A stretch of DNA of 64,000 nt from a virus. The stretch covers positions 1 to 64,000 of IMG/VR virus record IMGVR_UViG_3300040801_001819; one strand, 5' to 3'. Shown in pieces: positions 1-62,443 of the stretch. How positions within the stretch are numbered: the stretch's first letter is position 1; every line of letters starts with the position of its first letter. The notes under the pieces are model-generated. The model had not been told where the DNA came from and made no database searches. It was given only the letters and a program-made list of their open reading frames with translations. The position numbers and the translations under genes are program-made.

Positions 1-3000
1 ATAAGATTCTATGTTTCTAGACCCTATTCCTGCATAATTAGGAGTAAGAGTTGGAGTAGGTATTTCTACCCATTTACCATCCATGGCCTTATACCATTTT
101 TTAGATTTAAGATCCCATAAGTGTACAGGTTTATTCATTTTTTGCGCAAGTGTAACAGCAGTATTAGTTCCACCATAAACAGCGGCGTTAAATAAATCTG
201 TATCCATCTCTGCAATAGCAAATACACTATCAGAATTAGCTACTTGATAATAGTTTCTAACTTGTAGATTACCTTTTAAGTCATCTGCATATTTTATACC
301 AGTAAGTCTTTCAACCTCTTTTCTAGCAAGATCCATCTCTTCTTTAGAAAGAACAGTAGCAGAAGATGTTTTTTTAATCCCAGATGCAACTCTTGCATTA
401 TTAGCATCTTTATAGTGTTTATGATTTACAACACCAAATTCTCTACCTATTTGATCCCAAAATGAATCAGCACCATAAGCTCCACCTGAATGATTTGTAA
501 AATTAGAAGGATTTATTTCAGAAACAGCTTTATCTATGTTTACCTCTGTATATTGTAATCCAGTTTCAAGGTCAACATTAGCAATAACAATTTCACCAGA
601 TTCTTGATCAATCATATCGTATCTATCACCTGAATTTTTAACCCAAATATGATTATCAGGCATATTATCTCTGCCTTCAGTCTTTCCATTTGTAAATTCA
701 GAAAATAAAGTATAAAAAGTAAAGAATTCATTAGGCAACTTTCCTTGTGAAGATGCTATATATTTCTTAAAAGAAGCTATATCTTCATCAAATATAATCT
801 TTTTTGAAACTTCTCGAACATTCTCACTTGGAGTATTTTCTTGAACACTCACACCTGTTCTTTCTTCAACAAATCCAGGATCAGATCTAAGTTGTTTCAT
901 TATATCTCTAATCTCACCCTTAATCTTAGTAGGAACATTATTTCCTTCAACAACAGACTTAGTAGGAGCTTCTTTTTCATTATATTCGAAGATACTACCT
1001 TTACTAGATTTGTGTCCAAGCTTATGTGTACGAGTATATACAGGATTTCCATTAACTTCTCCTCTTAATATGAATAAACCATAATTTGGAATAGCACCTT
1101 TATCATATACTTCTTTTTGATTAAGCATTACTTTTGTAAATTTAGGGAATGTTTTATTACCCATAAAATCTACATCAACTGCAACAGAATATTTTTCTTC
1201 GTCACTGATAAATCCAGTTCCAAGACTAAATAAACTTCCGAAACCTTTTATTTTATCAGCTCTAAGCTCAGGAACTAATTTAGAACCCAATGTTTTATTA
1301 TCCCATTGATGTCTTAGCATTTGATCTTTAAAGTCTTCACCTGCAACCATATTGTCAACAGTTCTAAACATCTCATCAATCTCAAATGCAATACCTTGTT
1401 CTGCAAAGAAATTATGTGGGATATGTGAAAAGAATTGATTTAAATTATTATTAAATCCAGATTGTGAGTACGCGTATCTTATTAAATCTAGTCCAAGCTT
1501 TCTTTCGGCCGGATCAGAAGAATTAAGTAGTTGAGACCACGCTCTGTATATTCTATTGTTAAAACTTTTTGTAGCTGTTCTAGAATCTATTCCTAAAAAT
1601 TCGTATCCACCTGAAGTCTCTATTCTAAATTCTTGAATTAAGAAATTATCACTAGTTTCCTTAAGCGCAGAAATTTGTTCTGGTAAAACTTTAAATAAAT
1701 AATCATGATCTGAGTTGTTATCTTTAAAGACAGACAATCCAGACATAGAATAAGATCTAAAAGAATTTTCTAACACTCTTCCTAATTCAGGATCAGTTAA
1801 TAATCCTTTTCCCAAAGCTTCAGATACGCTGTCAAAAGCATGCAATACTTCTTGCTTACCAGCCAAGAATAAATCACTAGCTTGTAATACATCGCTAACC
1901 CATAACACTCCATTATGATAGTAATGACCCATCATGGTAGATGTAGCATGTGCATCAGTAAACCCTTTAGAAGCATATCCTAATATTTTCTTAGCATTAA
2001 GAACAGCATTCACTTTATTTTTAGCAATATGTAAAGGTAGAACTCCACCTCCATTACCTTTGGTATCAGCTTTAGCAGCAGAGACACTGGCGTTGAAAGC
2101 TCGTGCATGATCTTGAAAGAATTCAAATATATCCAGGATCTTGCCTTGTTCAATTTTCTCTTCAGTAGTAAGGGCGCCTTCTTTTTTAATTGCAGCCTCC
2201 ATATTAGATGGGTTTAAAGCAGCAACATCAGCTTCAGTAGCATCACCTTTCTTAACACCATATTGTAATCTAATATACTCCATTGGAGTTACAGTTTTGC
2301 CTGAGTCTCCAAAAGTTAATCTTCTTGCAGTTTTACCATCTGACATATTTATAACATCAACTAAATCTTTAAGAATAGGTTGACCTATAAATCTGTTAAC
2401 CCATGATACAGGAGCTCCTGCTCGTAATAACATAAATGTAATACCTGCTGTATGAACATTGTGGTTGCCACGAGAAATATAAGGATCTTTTGCAATATCA
2501 ACATACGCGTTTAAGAATGCAGATAGTACATCACTAATGCTATTCTTACCATCTGTGTCTGTAAGGTTATCAAACTTTGTATTACCTTTAGAGTCTTTAT
2601 GTCCAATACCTAAGTATCCGTTAAGCGTAATGTTTAAACTTTGGTTACTTACATGGTCCACTAACTGGTTTGCAGTCTGTGCCACACCGAACTTACCAGA
2701 CAAGTATTCAAACTTAGTCTTAATTTGTTGTATAGGGCTCATAAACTGTAAACTTCCTAACTCTTGTGGAGGAAATAAACCAATAATATCATTCTTTAAG
2801 AAACCAGCGTCAATTGATGTCATCATTTGGTCGTAAGTGTGAGGACTTGTAAGAACACTAGTATATAAATCTACTAGCATATTTTGCTTACCTTTTTTAG
2901 AGTCCATGTTACTTGGTACCTTTTGGATTTTTCCATCTCTCACTTCAAGGTGATGCGTCATAACATACATCTTGTCTATATCAAAGTCACTACCAGTCTT

Positions 3001-6000
3001 ACCAGGTACAGCATCGTAAGCAATAATACTATCTCCTAACTCAGGAGGAAGTATACCAACAATCTCTAACGGATCATTAGAAGACATCCCTTGGTTAGGT
3101 ATTCTATACGCAACCATTTGTAGTGCACTAGGATCTAAAATTTCCTTAAGCTTAGCAGCTGACATGTTCCATGGATTTATTCTCTGTGGATCATTCTCAT
3201 CTTTAAATTGTTTGTTATATTTATCAATAGTGCTTCTTATTGCACTATATGGTAACATTGCTTGACCAGGTAAAACTTTTCCAGTCTTTTTATCAATACG
3301 TGGTGGCTTTAATCCTTTTGGATCATAGTTATCAGATACTATTTTGATACCGGATCTAAGAATTTTAGTTGGGCCAGTATTTACACCCAATTCTTTTTGA
3401 GCAAGATTTAATCCTTCTAAAAAAGCTTTATCAATTAACTGATTTGTGTTGTGAGTAAATTCTTTATATTTAACTAATTTTTTAGCAGATTCAGAATTAC
3501 GATTTTGTTTAAAACTTTCTACAACTAGCGTTTTCATCAATCCTAAACTATCTGCATCCTTCATTTCAGCAATTGTTCCTTTTCCTCTTATTTTTTTTCC
3601 ATAACCTCCTATTTTATTATAAGCATCGTAAGTTTCTTTATCAAAATCTCCTGATTTGTTAGATTGATATGCATGCTCAACACTGCCGTATTCTTTACCT
3701 TTATATGTAAATCTTCTTTCTGCTAAATTAGATAAAACTTTTGTAGATTTACTTGATTCAGCTTGACCGTAATAAACATTTATAGTTCCTTCTGGAGCAT
3801 CTTCTTTTACTATTTCTTTTACAGACTCTAATCCAAAAGGAGAAACTTGAATAAAACTACCACCATTGGTTTTAACTTTAATAAGTTCTTTATTAAAAAT
3901 AGACATAAAGATACTTTGTACTCTTCCTGCTAATTGAGGAATAGCATCAAATGGCATCTCTTTTTCTAAGGCTGAAATAATATTTTCATCTCCACCTCTT
4001 GATTTAAATTCGTCAATAAGAGCCTCATAGACTGCCGTCATATTAGTAATCTTATTATCTTCTCCTATTCCGAACTTAGCACCAAGTGCTTCTCTTCCCT
4101 CTCCAACTAGTGATCCAATAGTATCATGAATCATTTGCATGATTTCTCTACCAGTTTTAGGTTCGCCATTAAGTTCATAGTTAGCTAATTTAGAAGATAA
4201 GTCAATACCAGCTAATATGTTCTTTTGGATTTGAGATCCAGTAAGAGTATCATGAATAAGCTTTGTAGGTAGATCTTGTTGTAACTTCCAGCCTGAATTA
4301 ATTAAAGGAGTTGAATTTAATTCAAATTCTGCTAATAACTCACCGTCTTTAGTGTGAATATCTGTTATTCCTTTTGCTCCAACTTTTACGCCGTCTCGAG
4401 TAATAACTTCATGAAGTTCATCTTTTTTATTAACATATGGCTCACCTGTTGCAGGATCTATTGTCATCTTATCGTATAGAGCTTGCATTGGAGTGTTTTT
4501 AACTAAACTAGGAACTAATACAGCCTGTGAATATTTTAAATATACAGGACGTCCGTTATTAATTTCGAAATATACACCTTTCAATGATTGAGCAGCAAGC
4601 TTAAGTTCTTTAGGCCCTAGCTCTTTGCCATCTATCATTTTCTTGAATACTTTCTCATGCTGAGCACCCCATTGGCCTAATCTCTCTTTAAGAAACTTCC
4701 ATCTATAAGGAGTTATCCATGCTTGAGCATCAGTGGTATTTATTCCTCCATTCACACCAGGTATTTTGTCATAAACTAAAGCTATACTTGCATTAGCTTG
4801 ACTTAGTCCATAATATTTAGAAGGGTAATTTACATCAGTGCCTGGAATTACAGATCCTTTTTTTATAATAGGATCTCCTTTTTTATTTCTTATTTTTAAA
4901 GAATTAATTATTTCATCTAAAAACTTAGAGGCAACCTCAACACCATTAACTGTTGCTTGATTAAAATACTTGTGATCATTCTCACTAAGTCTTAATTGTA
5001 ATCCATCAGTATATGTTGCAGGAATACGCTTAATTAAATCACTTTGATTTTTGTAGTAAGCAGGATCACCAGAAAATAACTTAGTATATTCAATAGTAGA
5101 AATAAGTCCATTAACCACATAATCACCAACCATTGTATGTACTGGTGAACTTTGAGATTCATATGAAGCCATTAAAGATTTATCAATAGTAAGGGCCTTT
5201 AATCCACCCTTTTCTTTTGGATCAACTTCTATAATTTTATTTTTTCTTAACTCCTGAAGAGTTTCTTTCATTCTATCCTTGATAGCTTGTACAACAAATG
5301 GTCTTAAAGCCTCTTTCTGAGTATTAGATAATCCAGAAATTGTAGATTTTTTAGGACGGTTATTATCATATAAGATAGCTCTAACTTCCTTAGAAGCTTC
5401 AGCAGGTGAGAATTCTGGAAACAATTGAGACTTAAGCGCATTCATACTCTTAGTATGATAGTGCTCTATCTTTTTTGAATCAGGAAGATTATCTATTTGA
5501 TCAGCTGCTTCAGCCATCCTGTTATATTCATCTTCAAAGTAGCCTATAAATATATCAGATGTAGCATCATCAACCTCTGTTCCTTTACCATTAGTATATA
5601 CTATACCTGTTTCAAACATTTCGAAACCTGCAAGATCCATTTTACGGGATTTATCAGCCGGAACAATAGTAGGAAATAATGACTTTTGGGCAGAAGCTTT
5701 CTTACCAAGAATTTTTACCATACTATCATTAATAGCATCAGCAATTGTTATATTAGTATTATCAACACCGTCATTTTTATTTTTGGATTTCATAGAGCTC
5801 GACAAGCCTATTTGAACATCCTGAATTCTTTCTAATGATTTAGCTTCGCGTTCACTATCATTAACAATGTCAGCAGCTAGTAAGTATTTTAACCATCTAG
5901 AATTCTTGTTATAAGTTAAGCTAGCTAAAGCTTGTATATCCATAGTATCATCTACTCCAGCTTGCTGTTTCCAGGAATTAAGCTTGTTATGTAAATAACT

Positions 6001-7677
6001 TAATGAAGAATAGGTCCAATATGTCTTACCTTCATTACCAACAATTGTATTCTCAGATAATTGAATAGCACTCAATCCTCTTGCAGTAGCTAATCTACCT
6101 AATACTAATTGATCATCAAATGGATTTTTAAATTCACCAGCTACAACAAATGGAGCTTTATCATCTTTTATGATAGCCATGGTTCTTTCCATACCTTCAT
6201 ATAAAGCTTTTACTTCACCATATCTTTTTTCCGGATCACTAACCTGAAGAATGAAGTTACGCATATCAAGGTTATTAACGTTGATACCAAGCACATTCAT
6301 TGCTCCCATTAAAATAGGAAGATTCTCACTAATACTTTTAATTTTAGACGCTAATGTTCCTCTTGTTCCTACTTGACCAATAAATTTTTTCTTTGACTCA
6401 GTAATCATGTCAGATATTTGTTCAATATCGACAGCTTTATTCATCTTACCCTTGCTGGTTAAGAATTTCTTTCTAAAATTACGGCCCCATTCAGCTTTAA
6501 GCTTACTAGATCTCGAGTTTGTAGAAGAAGCATTGATTACTTTTATATTACGACCGTTAACTTCAGTTACATAATAATCAAGTTGAGCTTTAGAGAAAGC
6601 TTGAAAAAATTCTGTAATTTTATTTCTTTCACTAATCTTCTCTGAAGTATTTAATTCTTTTAGTCTGTCTACTAATCCTTCTGTCCATGGCTTAACTAGT
6701 TTTAAGCCCTCAAGCTTCTCAACCATTAAGTCAAATACATCCTGAACATCTCCTCCTAAGTTAAAGTTAACTAAGTCAGATAGCATTGGCTCCAATGTAG
6801 TCCATACGTCATCAAATTCAACAAACTGTGGTTTACCTAAAAACCTACCAGGAACAGTAGAAATAACCATTTCATTTTTACCGTTCTCATTTACATATGG
6901 AGTTCCGTCAGGATTTTTCCTAAGCTCTCTTTTAGTATCTAATACAGTGGATAATAGTAACTTTACATTTACAGACGCAGTGTCTTTAGAATTCTTTGTA
7001 AAGCTTTCAGCGAAATTCATTCCAGTGGATTTGTCTTCTTCAGCCATTTCCACTTCTGGATTTCCATTCTCATCAGTTAAGTCAACAATTTGATCCTTTC
7101 TAGCACCTGCTTTAATACGCTTGCTTGATGTAAGACCCATGTCTTCAATTTGATTCCTTACCTCAATAACAAAATCATCTTTATATTTTTCAATAAGATC
7201 TGCACGCATTTGTGCATCAGGATCTCCTACATTTTCAGCTCTATAAGCATCAATGCTAGATTGAATAGACTCAGATATCTTTAGACCTTTTATATTCTCA
7301 ATGTTATTAAAATCAAATCCTTCCTTAGTTGAGAACAACTCATATCTAAGTTGATTAGTGATTTCAAATACGTCGTCTGGATCTATTTCTGGAAACTTAA
7401 TCTTGTTTAAGAAGTCTTTCTTGCCATTCTTAAGTTTATAGTAGAATTGGTTACCAGATTTAAATAATCTAGGATAACCATTATCATCTTGCCTTAATGC
7501 ACCTTGTTTGTCAGTCCATTTAGCATCTTTATTATTTTCCCAATCGCCGAATACTTGTTTGAATGAATCAGAAGCAATTCTTCGTGCTTCTGCATTAGCT
7601 AGTTCTTGAGTTCCCAAAATGGTAACTAGCTTTTCCTCAAACTTCATGGCGCCTATACAATTCGAATTCTTTCCCAT
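1..7677 (-). CDS. giant virion-packaged RNA polymerase (crAss-like vRNAP); N-terminus complete, C-terminus runs off the window; at least 2559 aa
   Basis: Absent from the ORF track because there is no stop inside the window. My manual minus-strand translation from ATG 7677 (or in-frame ATG 7647) is stop-free to nt 1 (7677 = 3 x 2559). The track lists no minus-strand ORF fragments in 1-7700. It has the RNAP beta-prime-like metal motif GSDFDIDKM (nt 2974-2988), preceded by AYRIPNQGMSS. It lies downstream of the ejection-protein block, as in crAss-like phages. Confidence 0.85.
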   Translation of the reverse strand, partial: MGKNSNCIGAMKFEEKLVTILGTQELANAEARRIASDSFKQVFGDWENNKDAKWTDKQGALRQDDNGYPRLFKSGNQFYYKLKNGKKDFLNKIKFPEIDPDDVFEITNQLRYELFSTKEGFDFNNIENIKGLKISESIQSSIDAYRAENVGDPDAQMRADLIEKYKDDFVIEVRNQIEDMGLTSSKRIKAGARKDQIVDLTDENGNPEVEMAEEDKSTGMNFAESFTKNSKDTASVNVKLLLSTVLDTKRELRKNPDGTPYVNENGKNEMVISTVPGRFLGKPQFVEFDDVWTTLEPMLSDLVNFNLGGDVQDVFDLMVEKLEGLKLVKPWTEGLVDRLKELNTSEKISERNKITEFFQAFSKAQLDYYVTEVNGRNIKVINASSTNSRSSKLKAEWGRNFRKKFLTSKGKMNKAVDIEQISDMITESKKKFIGQVGTRGTLASKIKSISENLPILMGAMNVLGINVNNLDMRNFILQVSDPEKRYGEVKALYEGMERTMAIIKDDKAPFVVAGEFKNPFDDQLVLGRLATARGLSAIQLSENTIVGNEGKTYWTYSSLSYLHNKLNSWKQQAGVDDTMDIQALASLTYNKNSRWLKYLLAADIVNDSEREAKSLERIQDVQIGLSSSMKSKNKNDGVDNTNITIADAINDSMVKILGKKASAQKSLFPTIVPADKSRKMDLAGFEMFETGIVYTNGKGTEVDDATSDIFIGYFEDEYNRMAEAADQIDNLPDSKKIEHYHTKSMNALKSQLFPEFSPAEASKEVRAILYDNNRPKKSTISGLSNTQKEALRPFVVQAIKDRMKETLQELRKNKIIEVDPKEKGGLKALTIDKSLMASYESQSSPVHTMVGDYVVNGLISTIEYTKLFSGDPAYYKNQSDLIKRIPATYTDGLQLRLSENDHKYFNQATVNGVEVASKFLDEIINSLKIRNKKGDPIIKKGSVIPGTDVNYPSKYYGLSQANASIALVYDKIPGVNGGINTTDAQAWITPYRWKFLKERLGQWGAQHEKVFKKMIDGKELGPKELKLAAQSLKGVYFEINNGRPVYLKYSQAVLVPSLVKNTPMQALYDKMTIDPATGEPYVNKKDELHEVITRDGVKVGAKGITDIHTKDGELLAEFELNSTPLINSGWKLQQDLPTKLIHDTLTGSQIQKNILAGIDLSSKLANYELNGEPKTGREIMQMIHDTIGSLVGEGREALGAKFGIGEDNKITNMTAVYEALIDEFKSRGGDENIISALEKEMPFDAIPQLAGRVQSIFMSIFNKELIKVKTNGGSFIQVSPFGLESVKEIVKEDAPEGTINVYYGQAESSKSTKVLSNLAERRFTYKGKEYGSVEHAYQSNKSGDFDKETYDAYNKIGGYGKKIRGKGTIAEMKDADSLGLMKTLVVESFKQNRNSESAKKLVKYKEFTHNTNQLIDKAFLEGLNLAQKELGVNTGPTKILRSGIKIVSDNYDPKGLKPPRIDKKTGKVLPGQAMLPYSAIRSTIDKYNKQFKDENDPQRINPWNMSAAKLKEILDPSALQMVAYRIPNQGMSSNDPLEIVGILPPELGDSIIAYDAVPGKTGSDFDIDKMYVMTHHLEVRDGKIQKVPSNMDSKKGKQNMLVDLYTSVLTSPHTYDQMMTSIDAGFLKNDIIGLFPPQELGSLQFMSPIQQIKTKFEYLSGKFGVAQTANQLVDHVSNQSLNITLNGYLGIGHKDSKGNTKFDNLTDTDGKNSISDVLSAFLNAYVDIAKDPYISRGNHNVHTAGITFMLLRAGAPVSWVNRFIGQPILKDLVDVINMSDGKTARRLTFGDSGKTVTPMEYIRLQYGVKKGDATEADVAALNPSNMEAAIKKEGALTTEEKIEQGKILDIFEFFQDHARAFNASVSAAKADTKGNGGGVLPLHIAKNKVNAVLNAKKILGYASKGFTDAHATSTMMGHYYHNGVLWVSDVLQASDLFLAGKQEVLHAFDSVSEALGKGLLTDPELGRVLENSFRSYSMSGLSVFKDNNSDHDYLFKVLPEQISALKETSDNFLIQEFRIETSGGYEFLGIDSRTATKSFNNRIYRAWSQLLNSSDPAERKLGLDLIRYAYSQSGFNNNLNQFFSHIPHNFFAEQGIAFEIDEMFRTVDNMVAGEDFKDQMLRHQWDNKTLGSKLVPELRADKIKGFGSLFSLGTGFISDEEKYSVAVDVDFMGNKTFPKFTKVMLNQKEVYDKGAIPNYGLFILRGEVNGNPVYTRTHKLGHKSSKGSIFEYNEKEAPTKSVVEGNNVPTKIKGEIRDIMKQLRSDPGFVEERTGVSVQENTPSENVREVSKKIIFDEDIASFKKYIASSQGKLPNEFFTFYTLFSEFTNGKTEGRDNMPDNHIWVKNSGDRYDMIDQESGEIVIANVDLETGLQYTEVNIDKAVSEINPSNFTNHSGGAYGADSFWDQIGREFGVVNHKHYKDANNARVASGIKKTSSATVLSKEEMDLARKEVERLTGIKYADDLKGNLQVRNYYQVANSDSVFAIAEMDTDLFNAAVYGGTNTAVTLAQKMNKPVHLWDLKSKKWYKAMDGKWVEIPTPTLTPNYAGIGSRNIESY

Positions 7678-7702
7678 TTGCTTTATAGCGTTTTAAAATT
7701 TA

Positions 7703-47632: not shown

Positions 47633-47653
47633 TTCTTTCCTCTCTTTTTATTG

Positions 47654-47727
47654 TGGTATTAAATGGAATCGAACCATTGACACCCCACGGCTTCAACATG
47701 GTGCTCTACCTACTGAGCTATAATACC
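47654..47727 (-). tRNA. tRNA-Phe (anticodon GAA)
   Basis: Hand-folded cloverleaf on the minus strand. Acceptor GGTATTA/TAATACC; D arm GCTC-AGTAGGTA-GAGC; anticodon arm CCATG-TTGAAGC-CGTGG; T arm AATGG-TTCGATT-CCATT. No encoded CCA. Confidence 0.8.
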
Positions 47728-47944
47728 AAATAACAGTGGGCGAGGAGTATTTTTTGACAACTTTGCCTCCCCGCGAATCACTGTTGATGTTACACAGGCG
47801 CCGCATCTTAACCATATTTTACAACTATAGCTTGCGGCATTCTGTGTTGATTTTAATACTGTTGCAGGTTACAATCCGACTGTAACGCACAATGCTTTCA
47901 CATTAGCTCTGCCACCTGAGACTTACTGCATTAGATTTTATTAG

Positions 47945-48017
47945 TAGCGTGTCTCAGATTTGAACTGAGGATCTCTGGGATATGAACCCAGCGAGATGGC
48001 CGCTTCTCTAACACGCA
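47945..48017 (-). tRNA. tRNA-Met (anticodon CAT), initiator-like
   Basis: Hand-folded. D stem GAGA/TCTC; anticodon arm CTGGG-TTCATAT-CCCAG; T arm CTCAG-TTCAAAT-CTGAG. Acceptor positions 2-7 pair, while 1:72 is U-U. It abuts the HNH stop codon. Confidence 0.75.
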
Positions 48018-50235: not shown

Positions 50236-50628
50236 TTAGTCTTTTTTATCTAAAAACCTTTCTCCATACTTTTCTTCGTACATATCTTCCCACTCAGTAA
50301 TATGAGCTTCTGCTAGATCTGTGTTTCCACAATCTACACAGTATGGAACAACCGCTTTGTCCTTAGTGCTAATTGCTCCATCCTTTGGAAATGAAATTTC
50401 TTTAATGTGCAATTTTAGACAAGTCTTGCAATATGTCACTGGCACGTTGTTGTAATCCTGCTTTTTTGTTATCATGTTTAATAATTTTAAATCGTTAATA
50501 ATGTCAGTGTCATACACTGGAAATGGTGCCATCATATTGGCATGCTCTCTGCGTTCAATTTCTTTAGTTAGGTCTTTCATTGGTTTATAATTTAATAGCA
50601 CATCCTGTTGTAAGGATTGTTCCAGCAA
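50236..50628 (-). CDS. hypothetical Cys-pair protein (CKTC...CVDC)
   Basis: Track ORF. The likely true start is Met17 at nt 50580, just after the GroEL stop. Confidence 0.45.
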   Translation of the reverse strand: MLEQSLQQDVLLNYKPMKDLTKEIERREHANMMAPFPVYDTDIINDLKLLNMITKKQDYNNVPVTYCKTCLKLHIKEISFPKDGAISTKDKAVVPYCVDCGNTDLAEAHITEWEDMYEEKYGERFLDKKD

Positions 50629-52147
50629 CTGAAGCGGCGTTTTCTAATGCAACTCTTGTTACTTTCTTTGGATCAATAATACCAACAACTATCATGTCTT
50701 CGTATTTAGCATTTTTAGCATCATACCCAAGTCTTCCATTAGTTTTATGCCTATTGATACTTGAAGTAACAACGTCTCCATTGATTCCAGCATTTTCACA
50801 TATAGTAAGTATTGGAGCCTTGCAAGCTTCTTTAAGGATGTTAATTCCTTTTTGCTCTGTCTCATGCTTAACATCTTGAATAAAGTCAATAGCATTAAGC
50901 AGTGCAATTCCTCCGCCAGGTACAATACCTTCTTCTAGCGCAGATATGACAGCTTCTTTTGCGTCAATAACTCTATCCATTTTTTCTTTCATTTCAACTT
51001 CTGAATTTCCTCCAACATAAATTACAGCAATACCACCAGATAGTTTTGCAATTCTATTTGATAATTGAGTTTTATTAAACTCTGATTTCTCTAATTTTAT
51101 TTTACCTTGTAGTTCGGAGACTCTATCTTTGATTTCTTTCTCATCTCCTTTAGCACCAACTATAACTGTTGATCCTTGAGTTACTGTAACTGAATCTGCT
51201 TGACCTAAGTAGGTACCATCCAGTTGGTTTATAAATTCTGATTTACATACTATGCCTCCGGTTTGGTATGCCATATCTTGTAGTATTTCAGCTCTTTGGC
51301 TTCCGAATCCTGGAGTCTTAACGGCTACAACTTGCGCTCCTCCTCGTGTTTTGTTTATCACTAACGTTGCAAGTGCTTGTCCTTCAATGTCTTCCGCCAC
51401 TATTAGTAACGGTCTTCCTACCTTCGTTGTTTGTTCTAATGTAGGCATTACATCCTCAACAGTAGTTAACTTACCATCCACCAACATAATATATGGGTCC
51501 TTATAAGTCACTTCCATTGTATCCGGATTAGTAGAGAAATAAGGTGAGACCATACCTCTATCAAATTGCATTCCATCTACCACGTCTATATAAGTAGTTT
51601 GGCCTTGTCCAGCTTCTACGGATACTCCTCCTTCTCTGCCTACTTTTCCGAAGGCTTCTGCCACTAATTCTCCAATCTCAATATTGTTATTTGCAGATAC
51701 TGTGGCAACTTGTTTAATCATTTCTGAATCAGTATCAACAGGAATAGCAATCGAATTTATATATTCAACTGCCTGCTTTACACCGAAATCTATCCCCTGC
51801 TTTAATTCATTTGCATCATATCCACCTGCAACAAGTTTTAATCCATGATTAAGTATACACTGAGCTATCACAGTAGCAGTAGTAGTTCCATCACCTGATC
51901 CTTGTTCAGCCTGTTCAGCTACATCTTTCATTAACTGCACACCCATTGCTTCATACCTATTTTCAACTGTCACGTTTTTTGCGACAGTTACTCCATCCTT
52001 TGTTATGATAGGCAGCATGTCTGGCCCCCTATCTATGATAACATTCTGACCCTTAGGCCCTAATGTAATCTTTACTGCATTAGAGAGAGTATCCACACCT
52101 CTCTGTATACTCTCTCTTGCTTCTCTCCCGTATTTAATATTCTCCAT
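50585..52147 (-). CDS. groEL: chaperonin GroEL/Cpn60 homolog (phage-encoded, 520 aa, no C-terminal GGM tail)
   Basis: Contains YGREARESIQRGVDTLSNAVKITLGPKGQNVII, ITKDGVTVAK and the ATP-site motif GDGTTTATV. It is co-linear with GroEL over its full length. Confidence 0.92.
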   Translation of the reverse strand: MENIKYGREARESIQRGVDTLSNAVKITLGPKGQNVIIDRGPDMLPIITKDGVTVAKNVTVENRYEAMGVQLMKDVAEQAEQGSGDGTTTATVIAQCILNHGLKLVAGGYDANELKQGIDFGVKQAVEYINSIAIPVDTDSEMIKQVATVSANNNIEIGELVAEAFGKVGREGGVSVEAGQGQTTYIDVVDGMQFDRGMVSPYFSTNPDTMEVTYKDPYIMLVDGKLTTVEDVMPTLEQTTKVGRPLLIVAEDIEGQALATLVINKTRGGAQVVAVKTPGFGSQRAEILQDMAYQTGGIVCKSEFINQLDGTYLGQADSVTVTQGSTVIVGAKGDEKEIKDRVSELQGKIKLEKSEFNKTQLSNRIAKLSGGIAVIYVGGNSEVEMKEKMDRVIDAKEAVISALEEGIVPGGGIALLNAIDFIQDVKHETEQKGINILKEACKAPILTICENAGINGDVVTSSINRHKTNGRLGYDAKNAKYEDMIVVGIIDPKKVTRVALENAASVAGTILTTGCAIKL

Positions 52148-56730: not shown

Positions 56731-56782
56731 AAAATTTTTTTTTAAAATTTTTTTTGAAGATGAAAATATAGTCGTACGCTAG

Positions 56783-56828
56783 ATAAACCCAAACTTTAGC
56801 CCCACTCTTTTTATATTTTGGGTATAGG
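56783..56828 (+). promoter_or_regulatory. early-promoter-like conserved motif, copy 1
   Basis: ATAAACCCAAACTTTAGCCCCACTCTTTTTATATTTTGGGTATAGG aligns with copies at 57312, 58033 and 58732. Confidence 0.55.
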
Positions 56829-57300: not shown

Positions 57301-57311
57301 TTAAATTAATA

Positions 57312-57356
57312 AAAACCTAAACTTCACATATACTCTTATTATACATTGGTAGTTAA
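57312..57356 (+). promoter_or_regulatory. early-promoter-like conserved motif, copy 2
   Basis: AAAACCTAAACTTCACATATACTCTTATTATACATTGGTAGTTAA. Confidence 0.55.
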
Positions 57357-57991: not shown

Positions 57992-58030
57992 TTGGGAGAG
58001 GACTAATCATTCTCTTCCAATCTTTTCTTT
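57992..58030 (+). terminator. rho-independent terminator
   Basis: TTGGGAGAG-N11-CTCTTCCAA (9 bp, one G-U pair) followed by TCTTTTCTTT. Confidence 0.65.
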
Positions 58031-58032
58031 AA

Positions 58033-58078
58033 AAAACCCAAACTTTACTCTCAACTCTTTTTATATATTGGTAGTTAG
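58033..58078 (+). promoter_or_regulatory. early-promoter-like conserved motif, copy 3
   Basis: AAAACCCAAACTTTACTCTCAACTCTTTTTATATATTGGTAGTTAG. Confidence 0.55.
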
Positions 58079-58664: not shown

Positions 58665-58731
58665 GCGTGAAAAAAGGTTTGCAACAAGTTGCAGAGTTTA
58701 ATTTAATCAATGTAAAAACATTGATTAATAT

Positions 58732-58775
58732 AACCAAAACTTTAAATCCTCTCTTTTTATGCACGGCGGAGTTGC
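58732..58775 (+). promoter_or_regulatory. early-promoter-like conserved motif, copy 4
   Basis: AACCAAAACTTTAAATCCTCTCTTTTTATGCACGGCGGAGTTGC. The 3-prime half diverges from the other copies. Confidence 0.45.
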
Positions 58776-59312: not shown

Positions 59313-60305
59313 TTAAAAATATTTATGAATATTACTGCTACATACGATGTCTTATAATCATCATGCAAGTTACTGACCGTAAGCTAACAGTCTACCTAGG
59401 AAAAGAAATGTTAACTCGGAGGAAATCTATAACCAACAAGCTTTAGAAGAGTAGTTGGGAAAATGAAAGTACAGAACCTTGATATTAATCATTGATAGGT
59501 AAAGTAGTGTAGCAGTAATATCTCATAATTAATTAAGCTCTTTGATTGAAGGTAAACAATAATATGAAGGGTATAGACAAGCGATGCTCTCGTTAAATCC
59601 ATAAGAGCCTTATTATAAATCATTATATCAGAAATGGTTGTGTTTATTGGAAATATAATTATTCAGCATCAGTAGTAACAGATGGGCAAATAGCCGGTTA
59701 CGATGCTTGTTTTAGTTATCCCATAACTGAATTGGGCAAAGAGTTTTTAATAAAAGCGAAGACATAACACACGCTATACTATGTGTTATAAATATAGTCC
59801 AAAACCCTTATGACTTTAAACTGTAACCTACTAGTAATGGTAAAGATTGTAATAAACAAAGGATTACTTGGTATTAATATTTGAAGTGAATAATAGTAAC
59901 TACAAAATAAACATTAATATTTCATAATATATAACAACTGAAAGCGAAACAGCAATTACAATTAGGAATAGATGCAACTGTATGAGATATGTTGCTTAGT
60001 GAATACGAAACAGATAATGCTGATTTAACTGACTAACTGGAAACAGGAAGGTTAAATAATATTCATACTATTGGGAGTTCTCAGCAAGTAGTTAAAGCAT
60101 TGGAGTGTTAGATTCCTCCACCAAAAGTGCGAGTCTTAGAGGCGTGTGTACACTTTAACTACATGACCCTACTCTTATTAAAGAATGGAGAAAGCCTATT
60201 TATAGGTACTTGCTAAAGTGATTAAACCTCGCTTTAATAATAAAGAGGGTGCTAAACCAATAATAAAATTAAAATAATTATAAACAACTTAAAATCATTT
60301 AAAAC

Positions 60306-60476: not shown

Positions 60477-60620
60477 ATGACACAAAATGAAAAAGATGTC
60501 TTAAAGATGTCGAAATTAAAGTGGCGCAACTACATGCGTAAGTCTTATCCTAATTTTAAGGTTAAGCAATGGGCTAGGACAAGTTATAGGCTTGCTCACC
60601 CACAAGTAATTAATAATTAA
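60477..60620 (+). CDS. small basic hypothetical protein (47 aa)
   Basis: Hand-found ORF preceded by TAAAACCAATTAAATC, the same context as other plus-strand starts. Confidence 0.4.
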   Translation: MTQNEKDVLKMSKLKWRNYMRKSYPNFKVKQWARTSYRLAHPQVINN

Positions 60621-60640: not shown

Positions 60641-61015
60641 ATGAAAAGATTTTATTATTTAATTGTCCTTTTAATAGGACTAACTATGGTGCAATCATGT
60701 GAAGATGACTGCACACAAGACGCATATTGCGCACTACTATCATCATCAGATTATAGTAAAACATCATTAACAAAAGGTGGAGAAAAAGTCTATGTGTGCC
60801 ACAATGGTGATACACTTTATATAAGCGTTAATGCACTACAAGCTCACCTAGATCATGGTGATACTGAGGGTGAGTGTAGCACATTATCTTCTACTGGACT
60901 AGAATTTAAAGACGGAGCGGTAGTTGAAATACCATGTGATTATGAGTTACCTTTTATACATGTTACAGATAATGGTACTCAATGGTGGTATGGTAAGACT
61001 AGTGATAGGCCTTAA
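60641..61015 (+). CDS. predicted lipoprotein (124 aa), possibly surface-exposed
   Basis: MKRFYYLIVLLIGLTMVQS-C is a signal peptide plus lipobox-like Cys, followed by the acidic EDD. It also has a VYVCHNGDTLYISVNALQAHLDHGD motif. Confidence 0.6.
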   Translation: MKRFYYLIVLLIGLTMVQSCEDDCTQDAYCALLSSSDYSKTSLTKGGEKVYVCHNGDTLYISVNALQAHLDHGDTEGECSTLSSTGLEFKDGAVVEIPCDYELPFIHVTDNGTQWWYGKTSDRP

Positions 61016-61019
61016 TAAT

Positions 61020-61923
61020 ATTTAAAGTATGGGAGGTAGAGTAATCTACACCAGGTCAAGTGGTTTACAGCTTGATATAATAGTCGTTGAATTCGACGTT
61101 ACATAGGAAAGTGCAGAACTAACTGCCGTAACAAATAGCATCATCATCTTTATAATTGGTTGGGTTCCTATCGTTTGGAGCCCAACAACAAAGCCCGCCT
61201 ACGGGGCATAGAATAAACCAGCAATGGTATAAAGTGATTGGAACTTAAGCATTCCAATTGCCATATAAGTTTATAACTTGTATGTCACTGATAGGTATTA
61301 CATTATTATATTGTGGAGCGTCTGTGGTCTAACGGCTGATGACGCAGCAATATAACTGTCCTTTGGTAAGGGAGAGTTGAGCAGAAATGCAATAAGATAT
61401 GTAATAGGCAATGATAGTAGTTCCCGCCAGGAATGAAGTTGTTGTTATTTGTACTCCTCATGCATGTTAAGAGAAATCTATGTGCGCGTTGGTTGCAAAA
61501 GTAAGTAGGGTTGGCACCTGAAAGCAGACAGAAGTTGATAACTAAACTATCCAAAAGATAGCATGTTATACAACTTAAGCAGACTTCTGTTATTTACTGG
61601 CCTAAATCTAAACTAGACAAAGGAAAAACAGCTTGAGACATTGAGAACACAATATTCTTATCCTACTGTAATATGTAGGTACCTACGAGCTCCCAAGGCT
61701 CATGGTAAATGAATAAAGTATTATTGCATTAACAGCGGCCGCGTTGTGAACACAGGGATGTGGATCAGTAAGAAATTGAAATTATAACTCTTAATGTAGT
61801 GGTGTCGAGCACCGTAACTCGTGAATATGTTGTCTACGTGCAGTAATGTACGTGTGTGTATAAATGTGAAAGCATTTACAATGACAATCTTTTAGGGCCA
61901 TCACTCAACCCTAGGTTTTTTTA
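61020..61923 (+). ncRNA. candidate large structured RNA (~900 nt), class unknown
   Basis: No plus-strand ATG-ORF longer than about 23 codons was found by eye, and all three stop codons occur in every frame checked. Local stems are dense, for example TTGGGTTCC/GGAGCCCAA, ATTGGAA/TTCCAAT, GCGTC/GACGC and GTAAATG/CATTTAC. It ends in a hairpin plus T8. Confidence 0.35.
61893..61923 (+). terminator. rho-independent terminator (T8)
   Basis: TAGGG-N11-CCCTA (extendable by G-U pairs) followed by TTTTTTTT. Confidence 0.55.
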
Positions 61924-61943
61924 TTACATTTTAAATACGAATC

Positions 61944-62195
61944 ATGATACCTTATAAAGAAATAAAGGCTGGTGACAAAGTACACTATAAGACTAAACAT
62001 GGTGAATGGCAGAACGGTATAGTAAAAACAATACCATCACATCCATTTATTGAAGTCTTTGTAGTGTATAATTGCGCAGGAGAATGGGATTATTATTACC
62101 AATACACAGCTCAATCCACTAGATTAACTGACTTACATAAAGGTTGGTTATTCAATAGAAAGAAATTAAATATCACTAAAAAACTTTTAAAATGA
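61944..62195 (+). CDS. early hypothetical protein (83 aa)
   Basis: Track ORF preceded by TTAAATACGAATC. Confidence 0.55.
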   Translation: MIPYKEIKAGDKVHYKTKHGEWQNGIVKTIPSHPFIEVFVVYNCAGEWDYYYQYTAQSTRLTDLHKGWLFNRKKLNITKKLLK

Positions 62196-62443
62196 AAGGA
62201 TTATTTATTACAATGATTATTTTTACTCTATTAATTGTATTTGCAAATAGAAATATTCATAGCAAAAAGCGTGAATTAGCAACTTATGAAGAAAGAGTAA
62301 TGTGGTTCTTAAAGAACTATTATGAATCAGGAATGGAGTATGATATATTACTCATATCTATGGAAGGTGCTGACCTAGATAATTTTGAATGGTATGATGA
62401 TATTATACACATACCAAAGTATAAAGACGAATTAGATGAGTGA
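62192..62443 (+). CDS. early hypothetical protein with an N-terminal TM (83 aa)
   Basis: Track ORF with an ATGA overlap to the previous gene and the hydrophobic segment LFITMIIFTLLIVFA. Confidence 0.55.
   Translation: MKGLFITMIIFTLLIVFANRNIHSKKRELATYEERVMWFLKNYYESGMEYDILLISMEGADLDNFEWYDDIIHIPKYKDELDE

Follow-up and report, generated by a model that had tools for sequence, protein, structure and literature searches.

A probable remote homolog of GOLLD RNA in a marine crAss-like phage

A stretch of ~900 nt on the plus strand of a marine crAss-like phage genome (~61019-61922) is most likely a large non-coding RNA and a remote homolog of GOLLD, a reading to which we assign a probability of about 0.85. 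The window, i.e. the whole stretch of DNA that was analysed, comprises 64,000 nt (positions 1 to 64,000 of the IMG/VR record IMGVR_UViG_3300040801_001819). The molecule is conserved as an RNA, with base pairs maintained by compensatory change, and its 3' 380 nt fit the GOLLD model end to end. An earlier note on this DNA had proposed a large structured RNA at the locus and had named GOLLD as one possibility; both suggestions gained support, at a score of 52 bits against a threshold of 150 bits.

Genomic context and coding potential

The window encodes a major head protein, a portal protein, a large terminase and GroEL, and thus derives from a phage genome. The terminase shares 42-45% identity with its counterparts in crAss-like phages of Bacteroides, Flavobacterium and Cellulophaga. 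Judged by gene set and terminase similarity, the host genome is that of an uncultured marine crAss-like phage, for which the longest source contig measures 98 kb. An ORF of giant size (at least 2,564 codons; 1-7702, minus strand) runs off the window start, and the GroEL-type chaperonin (50585-52147, minus strand) matches PHROG 5725 with E = 1e-146. The only tRNAs in the window, tRNA-Phe and tRNA-Met, are located on the minus strand at 47653-48017, just past the large terminase gene; the nearest tRNAs are therefore 13 kb away from the RNA and on the other strand. Several small plus-strand ORFs of the window are preceded by a ~42-nt motif, AAACC(C/T)AAACTTTA - 7-8 nt - ACTCTT(T/A)TTATA(T/C)ATTGG, which is a candidate for the phage promoter of this block of small genes. 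Plus-strand copies occur at 56780-56821, 57308-57349, 58030-58071 and 58726-58767, with a partial one at 60170-60188 and a spacing of 500-700 nt.

The RNA occupies an ORF-free gap (61016-61943) between two plus-strand ORFs, one of 124 aa with a lipoprotein-like signal peptide (60641-61015) and one of 83 aa (61944-62195). The longest listed ORF within the gap is 82 aa long, starts with TTG and lies on the minus strand (61306-61554), in agreement with the single minus-strand ORF of this length reported from the sequence before. The longest plus-strand ATG ORF is short, as had been noted, but measures 25 codons instead of ~23. The longest stop-free run of 95 codons falls within the range of shuffled sequences (75 +/- 17), no ORF is gained if TAG or TGA is read as sense, and reading TAA as sense yields a maximum of 125 codons, on the minus strand. 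The earlier statement that no credible ORF exists here thus holds, also under stop-codon recoding, and the region 61016-61943 is not protein-coding. Its G+C content, formerly counted by hand as ~39% over 61021-61920, amounts to 38.6%, compared to 32.8% upstream, 31.3% downstream and 33.7% in the whole window.

Folding is better than in shuffled sequences on the plus strand only. The 5' half reached z = -4.09 on this strand (0/100 dinucleotide shuffles were as good) and z = -1.29 as reverse complement, and the 3' half reached z = -2.34 on the plus strand. All helices that had been picked out by eye are present in the sequence and most of them appear in the computed folds; the outer ATGG/CCAT pairing at 61224-61265 did not hold up and is replaced there by ACCA/UGGU. 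Compensatory substitutions or paired deletions in a homolog were observed for GTCG/CGAC, TTGGGTTCC/GGAGCCCAA, ATTGGAA/TTCCAAT and GCGTC/GACGC. The sequence CUUAAGCA, present twice (61244, 61574), and several 6-nt palindromes are no more than chance would produce and were given no weight as evidence.

Homologs, compensatory change and partial copies

Near-identical copies of the RNA were found in two JGI metagenomes and one Logan assembly, and a syntenic homolog in a Tara Oceans scaffold (L007) was recovered by a metagenome-contig scan with the downstream protein, so that full-length independent sequences number two only. Window and Tara RNAs are 83.8% identical overall, the 3' domain reaching 97.2% and the 5' part 70.7%; the neighbouring genes vary from ~35% to 95% in 50-nt bins. 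A 47-aa ORF farther upstream (60477-60620, plus strand; MTQNEKDVLKMSKLKWRNYMRK...) shares 95% nucleotide identity with its Tara counterpart, far above its neighbours, and the adjoining lipoprotein-like gene is only ~35-55% identical.

Other searches recovered relatives or fragments at best. A comparison with 50,697 phage records by blastn (distant mode, RNA as query) and megablast (24 kb of the window) gave no match, and no full copy was present in the cultured phages, IMG/VR contigs or reference genomes searched. Flanking-protein scans of IMG/VR returned only relatives at 45-58% identity, all without the RNA, one such scan of metagenomes gave the Tara homolog and nine distant relatives without the RNA, and a protein search of 5.8 billion sequences yielded only one further cluster, the source of the partial copy L027 described below. 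Of the exact and degenerate DNA patterns searched in IMG/VR, the first returned nothing and the second only the 3' stub of another partial copy, L017. The result of a third pattern search (L018) was a chance match in coding DNA, and the same pattern in 185,579 reference genomes produced five chance matches without homology.

The divergent 5' part provides strong compensatory variation, the kind of evidence for which the earlier note had suggested collecting homologs. When only the window sequence was used to predict the fold, 17 pairs of the 5' domain had changed on both sides in Tara, and 16 of them are still paired, compared to 1-5 kept and 5-9 broken in controls with partners slid by 1-3 columns. 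The consensus fold of the 5' part contains 141 predicted pairs, and within 61027-61529, 22 pairs changed on both sides and yet remained paired; slid partners gave 0-2 such pairs and column shuffles 8.0 +/- 2.1, with 0/500 reaching 22. In the 3' domain, covariation comes down to very few changes because both copies are almost identical there. Pair 61666/61675 is C-G in the window, U-G in L005 and U-A in Tara, pair 61754/61759 changes from A-U to C-G across copies, and several further single changes in this domain convert U-G to C-G or U-A.

The same comparison bears on whether the gap could be a protein-coding gene that decayed or was recoded. Stop-codon reassignment occurs in some crAss-like phages, and the 82-aa minus-strand ORF (61306-61554) might be taken as a relic of such a gene. 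However, no recoding opens a long frame, and the substitutions between window and Tara show no codon periodicity, being distributed over positions modulo 3 as 46/41/42, compared to 8/5/23 over the codon positions of the next gene. Indels in the RNA are 1, 18, 1, 1, 1, 5, 5, 1, 1, 1, 5 and 1 nt long, and the 82-aa ORF is lost in Tara with frame-breaking indels of 1 and 5 nt. Together with the compensatory base-pair changes, this makes a coding origin a practically negligible option. Neither of the two outcomes that the earlier note had listed as speaking against a structured RNA, i.e. homologs without covariation or homologs with an intact gene at the locus, was observed.

The 5' part of the RNA (61014-61527) consists of the following elements:

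61014..61026, plus strand: conserved leader AATAATATTTAAA (alignment with Tara; consensus fold of three sequences)
61019..61140, plus strand: 5' module, a closed sub-domain of ~120 nt (consensus fold; conservation in L027)
61158..61527, plus strand: variable core of the 5' domain with ~15 helices (Tara alignment; consensus fold)

Homology to Tara begins abruptly at the leader, immediately past the divergent upstream gene's stop codon. The consensus fold of three sequences predicts pairing between 61019-61023 (UAUUU) and 61136-61140 (AAAUA). The stretch 61014-61033 weakly resembles 60055-60074 and only the last part of the ~42-nt candidate promoter motif. Within the 5' module, the helix 61028-61035/61124-61131 encloses hairpins at 61036-61049, 61055-61076 and 61083-97, and the closing pair of the last one (61083/61097) is G-C in the window, C-G in Tara and A-U in L027, the latter according to a realignment by eye since the automatic alignment misplaces the L027 hairpin. 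The module has no match among Rfam families, and an origin from a tRNA was rejected, as ARAGORN and sequence comparison found it unrelated to tRNA. The variable core is the most divergent part, with only 49-59% Tara identity in some 50-nt windows; both arms of the helix GCGUC/GACGC (61318-22/61350-54) were lost together in the Tara copy.

Two close relatives hold pieces of the RNA only. L027 (JGI 3300071328 contig Ga0612043_0429, 2807-2945) is 79% identical to 61019-61157 with the hairpins kept, and of all RNA parts retains the 5' module alone (the first ~140 nt), followed by a short unrelated hairpin (ACATAGTCTCT-TTCG-TTAGAGACTATGT) and then by the 83-aa gene. L017 (IMGVR_UViG_3300025655_000050, 196-335), on the other hand, corresponds to window positions ~61777-61925 and contains only the last ~140 nt in nearly identical form. 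It lacks several upstream genes as well as the 83-aa gene and the RNA's first ~760 nt, and a homolog of the window ORF at 62192-62443 directly follows the stub. The L017 stub has the appearance of a leftover from a deletion, perhaps retained as a terminator.

This pattern raises the question of whether the locus encodes two RNAs, an independent element of ~120 nt (61019-61140) and a shorter GOLLD-like RNA starting near 61158. The 5' module forms a closed sub-domain that persists on its own in L027 with its pairing kept and the rest deleted, the Tara copy carries an 18-nt insertion exactly at its 3' border, and bona fide GOLLDs have another small RNA, namely a tRNA, directly upstream on the same strand. 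Yet neither a terminator nor a promoter signal separates the two parts, the module has no counterpart among RNA families and does not resemble a tRNA, and L017 keeps the opposite end, so that the stubs may be plain deletion remnants. We therefore regard two separate transcripts as unlikely and continue to treat the ~900 nt as one RNA.

The end pieces that persist in relatives lacking the middle could also hint at a cis-acting DNA element or an untranslated region, such as a replication origin, a packaging site or a long 5' or 3' UTR with a terminator, instead of a free-standing RNA; the position between same-strand genes and the terminator-like hairpin at the end would fit as well. Nevertheless, folding stability is strand-specific, compensation proceeds through G-U intermediates that are workable only in RNA, the GOLLD model matches, and neither repeat arrays nor iterons were detected there. 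A purely cis-acting role is thus highly improbable.

More distant relatives have no RNA at the equivalent slot. Since two close relatives hold pieces only and distant ones none, the RNA is accessory and has been repeatedly lost, and the loss of most of it in the two close relatives suggests a dispensable function. In L003 (IMGVR_UViG_3300007540_000219, 4378-4455), a tRNA-Glu takes the slot of the RNA after the homolog of the upstream lipoprotein-like gene, an arrangement that recalls the usual tRNA-GOLLD neighbourhood; this tRNA-Glu has no sequence relation to the 5' module.

Match to the GOLLD model and fold of the 3' domain

An Infernal scan against Rfam had been proposed in the earlier note. 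With the segment 60900-62050 given alone (lax pre-filters) and E-values allowed up to 10, GOLLD (RF02032) was the sole Rfam match, on the plus strand only, at full model length (E = 1.5e-12). The Tara homolog likewise matched the full model with 55.6 bits (E = 1.6e-13). Within the ORF-free block, the match takes up the 3' ~380 nt and stops at the last hairpin before the T run. With 52.3 and 55.6 bits, both copies score about one third of the curated gathering threshold of 150, and a gathering-threshold Rfam scan of the window found only a tRNA. An E-value scan of the whole 64 kb missed the GOLLD region because sequence-based pre-filters, which are stricter on long input, reject it; long-input scans can therefore miss remote structured-RNA homologs like this one. 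Searched in the same mode, other phage loci (~22 kb) gave no GOLLD match at E up to 1, and L017 gave none at E up to 0.01. The 3' domain (61528-61922) is composed as follows:

61530..61911, plus strand: Rfam GOLLD (RF02032) match, model positions 1-416 of 416, 52.3 bits, E = 1.5e-12
61528..61591, plus strand: first hairpin of the GOLLD 3' domain, model positions 1-62 (Rfam alignments)
61592..61637, plus strand: A-rich linker, mostly unpaired (Rfam alignment; matches the variable or disordered GOLLD linker)
61638..61797, plus strand: core within the long-range helix ACAUUGAGAA (61638-61647)/CUCUUAAUGU (61788-61797) (model alignment)
61798..61915, plus strand: 3' terminal part of the GOLLD fold (model alignment; comparison with Tara and L017)
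61806-61821, plus strand: hairpin CGAG/CUCG, with two positions deleted in the model alignment
61829-34/61883-88, plus strand: helix GUUGUC/GACAAU, enclosing two hairpins (61835-54, 61861-78)
61835-54, plus strand: enclosed hairpin UACGUGCA-GUAA-UGUACGUG
61861-78, plus strand: enclosed hairpin UAAAUGU-GAAA-GCAUUUA
61893-97/61909-13, plus strand: last hairpin UAGGG/CCCUA with loop CCAUCACUCAA
61916..61922, plus strand: run of 7 T (sequence; also in the Tara copy and L017)

Standard pairs are formed at 73/98 model pairs in the window and 79/98 in Tara, and the order of the GOLLD-model helices is kept throughout. The long-range helix, annotated as a pseudoknot, forms 9/10 pairs despite a sequence unlike the consensus. 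P21a is the sole model helix absent from the alignment, and the window has an insertion of 21-23 nt at this place that forms its own hairpin. Loop motifs common to window and GOLLD are CAAAA, CNCAA and UAC...GUG.

The first hairpin consists of an outer stem (GACAGAAGU/ACUUCUGUU), inner stems, an internal loop on the 3' side (CUUAAGCAG) and the CAAAA loop (61553-61557), which is common to most GOLLD rows listed of the published alignment; all outer pairs (9/9) form in the Tara alignment. It is followed by the linker, in which ARAGORN found no tRNA (61592-61637); a linker has also been described for GOLLD env-38 (PMC12286853). The core contains twin hairpins (61662-61707) with the loop CCCAA, equivalent to the CGCAA loop of the GOLLD family, a hairpin at 61732-61747 that bears the all-G/C 8-nt palindrome GCGGCCGC (61735-61742) at the place of P21a, and a further hairpin at 61751-61762.

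In the terminal part (61798-61915), all model-filled helix positions are standard pairs, with one exception in the last hairpin. The sequence is identical or nearly so in the Tara copy and L017, and pairing is retained at the single changes from G to A (61872) and from A to G (L017, 61864). A GAAA tetraloop (61868-61871) stands in for the long L26 loop. The earlier note had described the end of the stretch as a terminator stem followed by eight T. The stem exists (61893-61897/61909-61913) but at the same time represents the last helix of the GOLLD fold, and the T run counts seven residues (61916-61922), not eight. Owing to its 11-nt loop, the stem was not called by a simple terminator scan with a loop limit of 8. 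The T run is the probable, intrinsic-terminator-like transcript end, and the RNA would be transcribed to the right, together with the block of small plus-strand genes or immediately after it, with its 3' end at the last hairpin plus U7.

Relation to other large RNAs and implications

GOLLD, an ornate phage RNA of two domains, is said to go back to Weinberg et al. 2009. In three bona fide members that we inspected, all of cultured phages, from Acinetobacter phage P577 (217.6 bits), Vibrio phage PG07 (189.9) and Roseobacter phage DSS3P8 (150.7), the RNA is located directly downstream of a same-strand tRNA, with 366-680 nt of 5' space. The window RNA, with ~900 nt and a 5' domain of ~500 nt, is within this range, and it is phage-encoded and of similar size as GOLLD in general (~0.8-0.9 kb, with many members above 800 nt). 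It further shares the first hairpin with its CAAAA loop and the A-rich linker thereafter, the long-range helix around several hairpins, the succession of the terminal helices, and an end at the last hairpin. GOLLD RNAs have a 3' region that is conserved universally and a poorly conserved 5' region (PMC12286853), and the same division is seen between window and Tara (97.2% vs 70.7%).

Differences to the bona fide members are nonetheless substantial. At aligned model positions, the window is only 35-42% identical to the three, which are 46-52% identical among themselves, and it keeps 51/108 positions that are identical in all of them. The motifs GAAAGG, GAGUA, GUGGAUA and the L27 loop GUAAUCUCA are absent or altered, the L27 loop being CCAUCACUCAA in the window, and the nucleotides invariant in the family (CAAAAG included) are not preserved as a set, with the exceptions of the CAAAA loop and UAC...GUG. 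L26 is cut to a GAAA tetraloop, and the P21a hairpin with its GC kissing dinucleotide gives way to the hairpin with GCGGCCGC; a P21a is likewise missing in the bona fide member of phage P577. The host phage is crAss-like, and the RNA lacks an adjacent tRNA, which is a frequent but not obligatory neighbour of GOLLD; no tRNA was found at the Tara locus either. A full-text literature search for GOLLD together with crAss returned no record on crAss-like phages among those sampled. Neither nhmmer nor blastn found similarity to GOLLD env-38 in an incomplete, PDF-derived copy (816 of 833 nt). A reciprocal model (R1) built from the last 128 nt of three near-identical sequences hit P577 at noise level (7.6 bits, E = 5), even if at the correct place (L024 1138-1266). 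Taking the score, the lost motifs, the non-significant reciprocal hit and the absent tRNA together, we place the window RNA as a remote homolog or variant outside the curated definition of GOLLD.

These differences might also be read as signs of an independent, as yet undescribed class of large structured phage RNA, whose match to GOLLD would reflect similar generic hairpins and an A-rich linker without common descent. The score below the threshold (52 vs 150 bits), the loss of half of the family-invariant nucleotides, the lack of primary-sequence similarity to env-38 (816 of 833 nt copy), the non-significant reciprocal search and the missing tRNA neighbour would all be expected then. Against it stand a global match that spans the model end to end on the right strand with E = 1.5e-12, the exact placement of this match at the 3' terminus of the ORF-free block with its end at the T run, the kept long-range helix and helix order, the shared loop motifs CAAAA, CNCAA and UAC...GUG, and the pattern of a conserved 3' and a variable 5' part that is the signature of GOLLD. 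An origin independent of GOLLD thus appears quite improbable, and common descent is the reading we follow.

Other families of large RNAs fit less well. ROOL is also a large phage non-coding RNA, and self-assembly would likely be the same kind of action, but no ROOL model match was obtained in 60900-62050 at E up to 10. The 5' and 3' parts of ROOL are intertwined and co-evolving (PMC12286853), whereas the two halves of the window RNA evolve at very different rates. OLE, raiA, HEARO and group I/II introns resemble it in size class and dense secondary structure but have no Rfam match in the window region, and protein genes of the HEARO or group II intron type were not found among the flanking small ORFs.

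GOLLD env-38 assembles into a 14-mer cage of D7 symmetry, with kissing loops and A-minor bridges between its subunits, as resolved by cryo-EM (PDB 9MEE; Kretsch et al. 2025, PMC12286853), and no natural RNAs other than GOLLD and ROOL are known to form closed protein-free cages. As a function of these cages, the enclosure or sequestration of cellular components such as tRNAs or ribosomes has been suggested (PMC12286853). By analogy with env-38 (PMC12286853), the RNA described here might fold into two separate domains and self-associate into a homo-oligomeric RNA particle during infection. We put the odds of oligomerisation at roughly even because contact nucleotides are altered, and those of the very same 14-mer lower than that. 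In env-38, the P21a loop forms a GC:GC kiss between subunits (PMC12286853). The hairpin with GCGGCCGC and the GAAA tetraloop, both identical in the Tara copy, are possible candidates for rewired contact elements.

One might go further and propose a separate, crAss-specific GOLLD-like lineage that kept the 3' helix topology while its tertiary and inter-subunit contacts were rewired (a GAAA tetraloop for L26, a GGCC-type self-complementary loop where the L21a GC kiss would be, and a changed L27), and that carries a new 5' cap domain, has no link to tRNAs and forms a particle unlike the D7 14-mer. This proposal is tentative and rather doubtful at present. If true, the window RNA would be the founding example of such a lineage, with an assembly stoichiometry or geometry different from the D7 14-mer, and GOLLD-family function would be independent of neighbouring tRNAs.

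As a remote homolog, the RNA extends the GOLLD family to marine crAss-like phages, and its uncoupling from tRNA islands weakens the idea of a cage acting on adjacent tRNAs. Routine annotation misses such members, given that both the Rfam gathering threshold and the speed filters for long inputs reject the RNA of the window. By itself the finding reveals no function; what it contributes is a broader range for a family of remarkable structure, together with natural variants. Near-isogenic relatives with the full RNA, its first ~140 nt, its last ~140 nt or nothing provide a comparative handle on dispensability. Moreover, since the helices are kept and most invariant contact nucleotides are gone, the RNA represents a natural experiment on which contacts are needed for fold and assembly.
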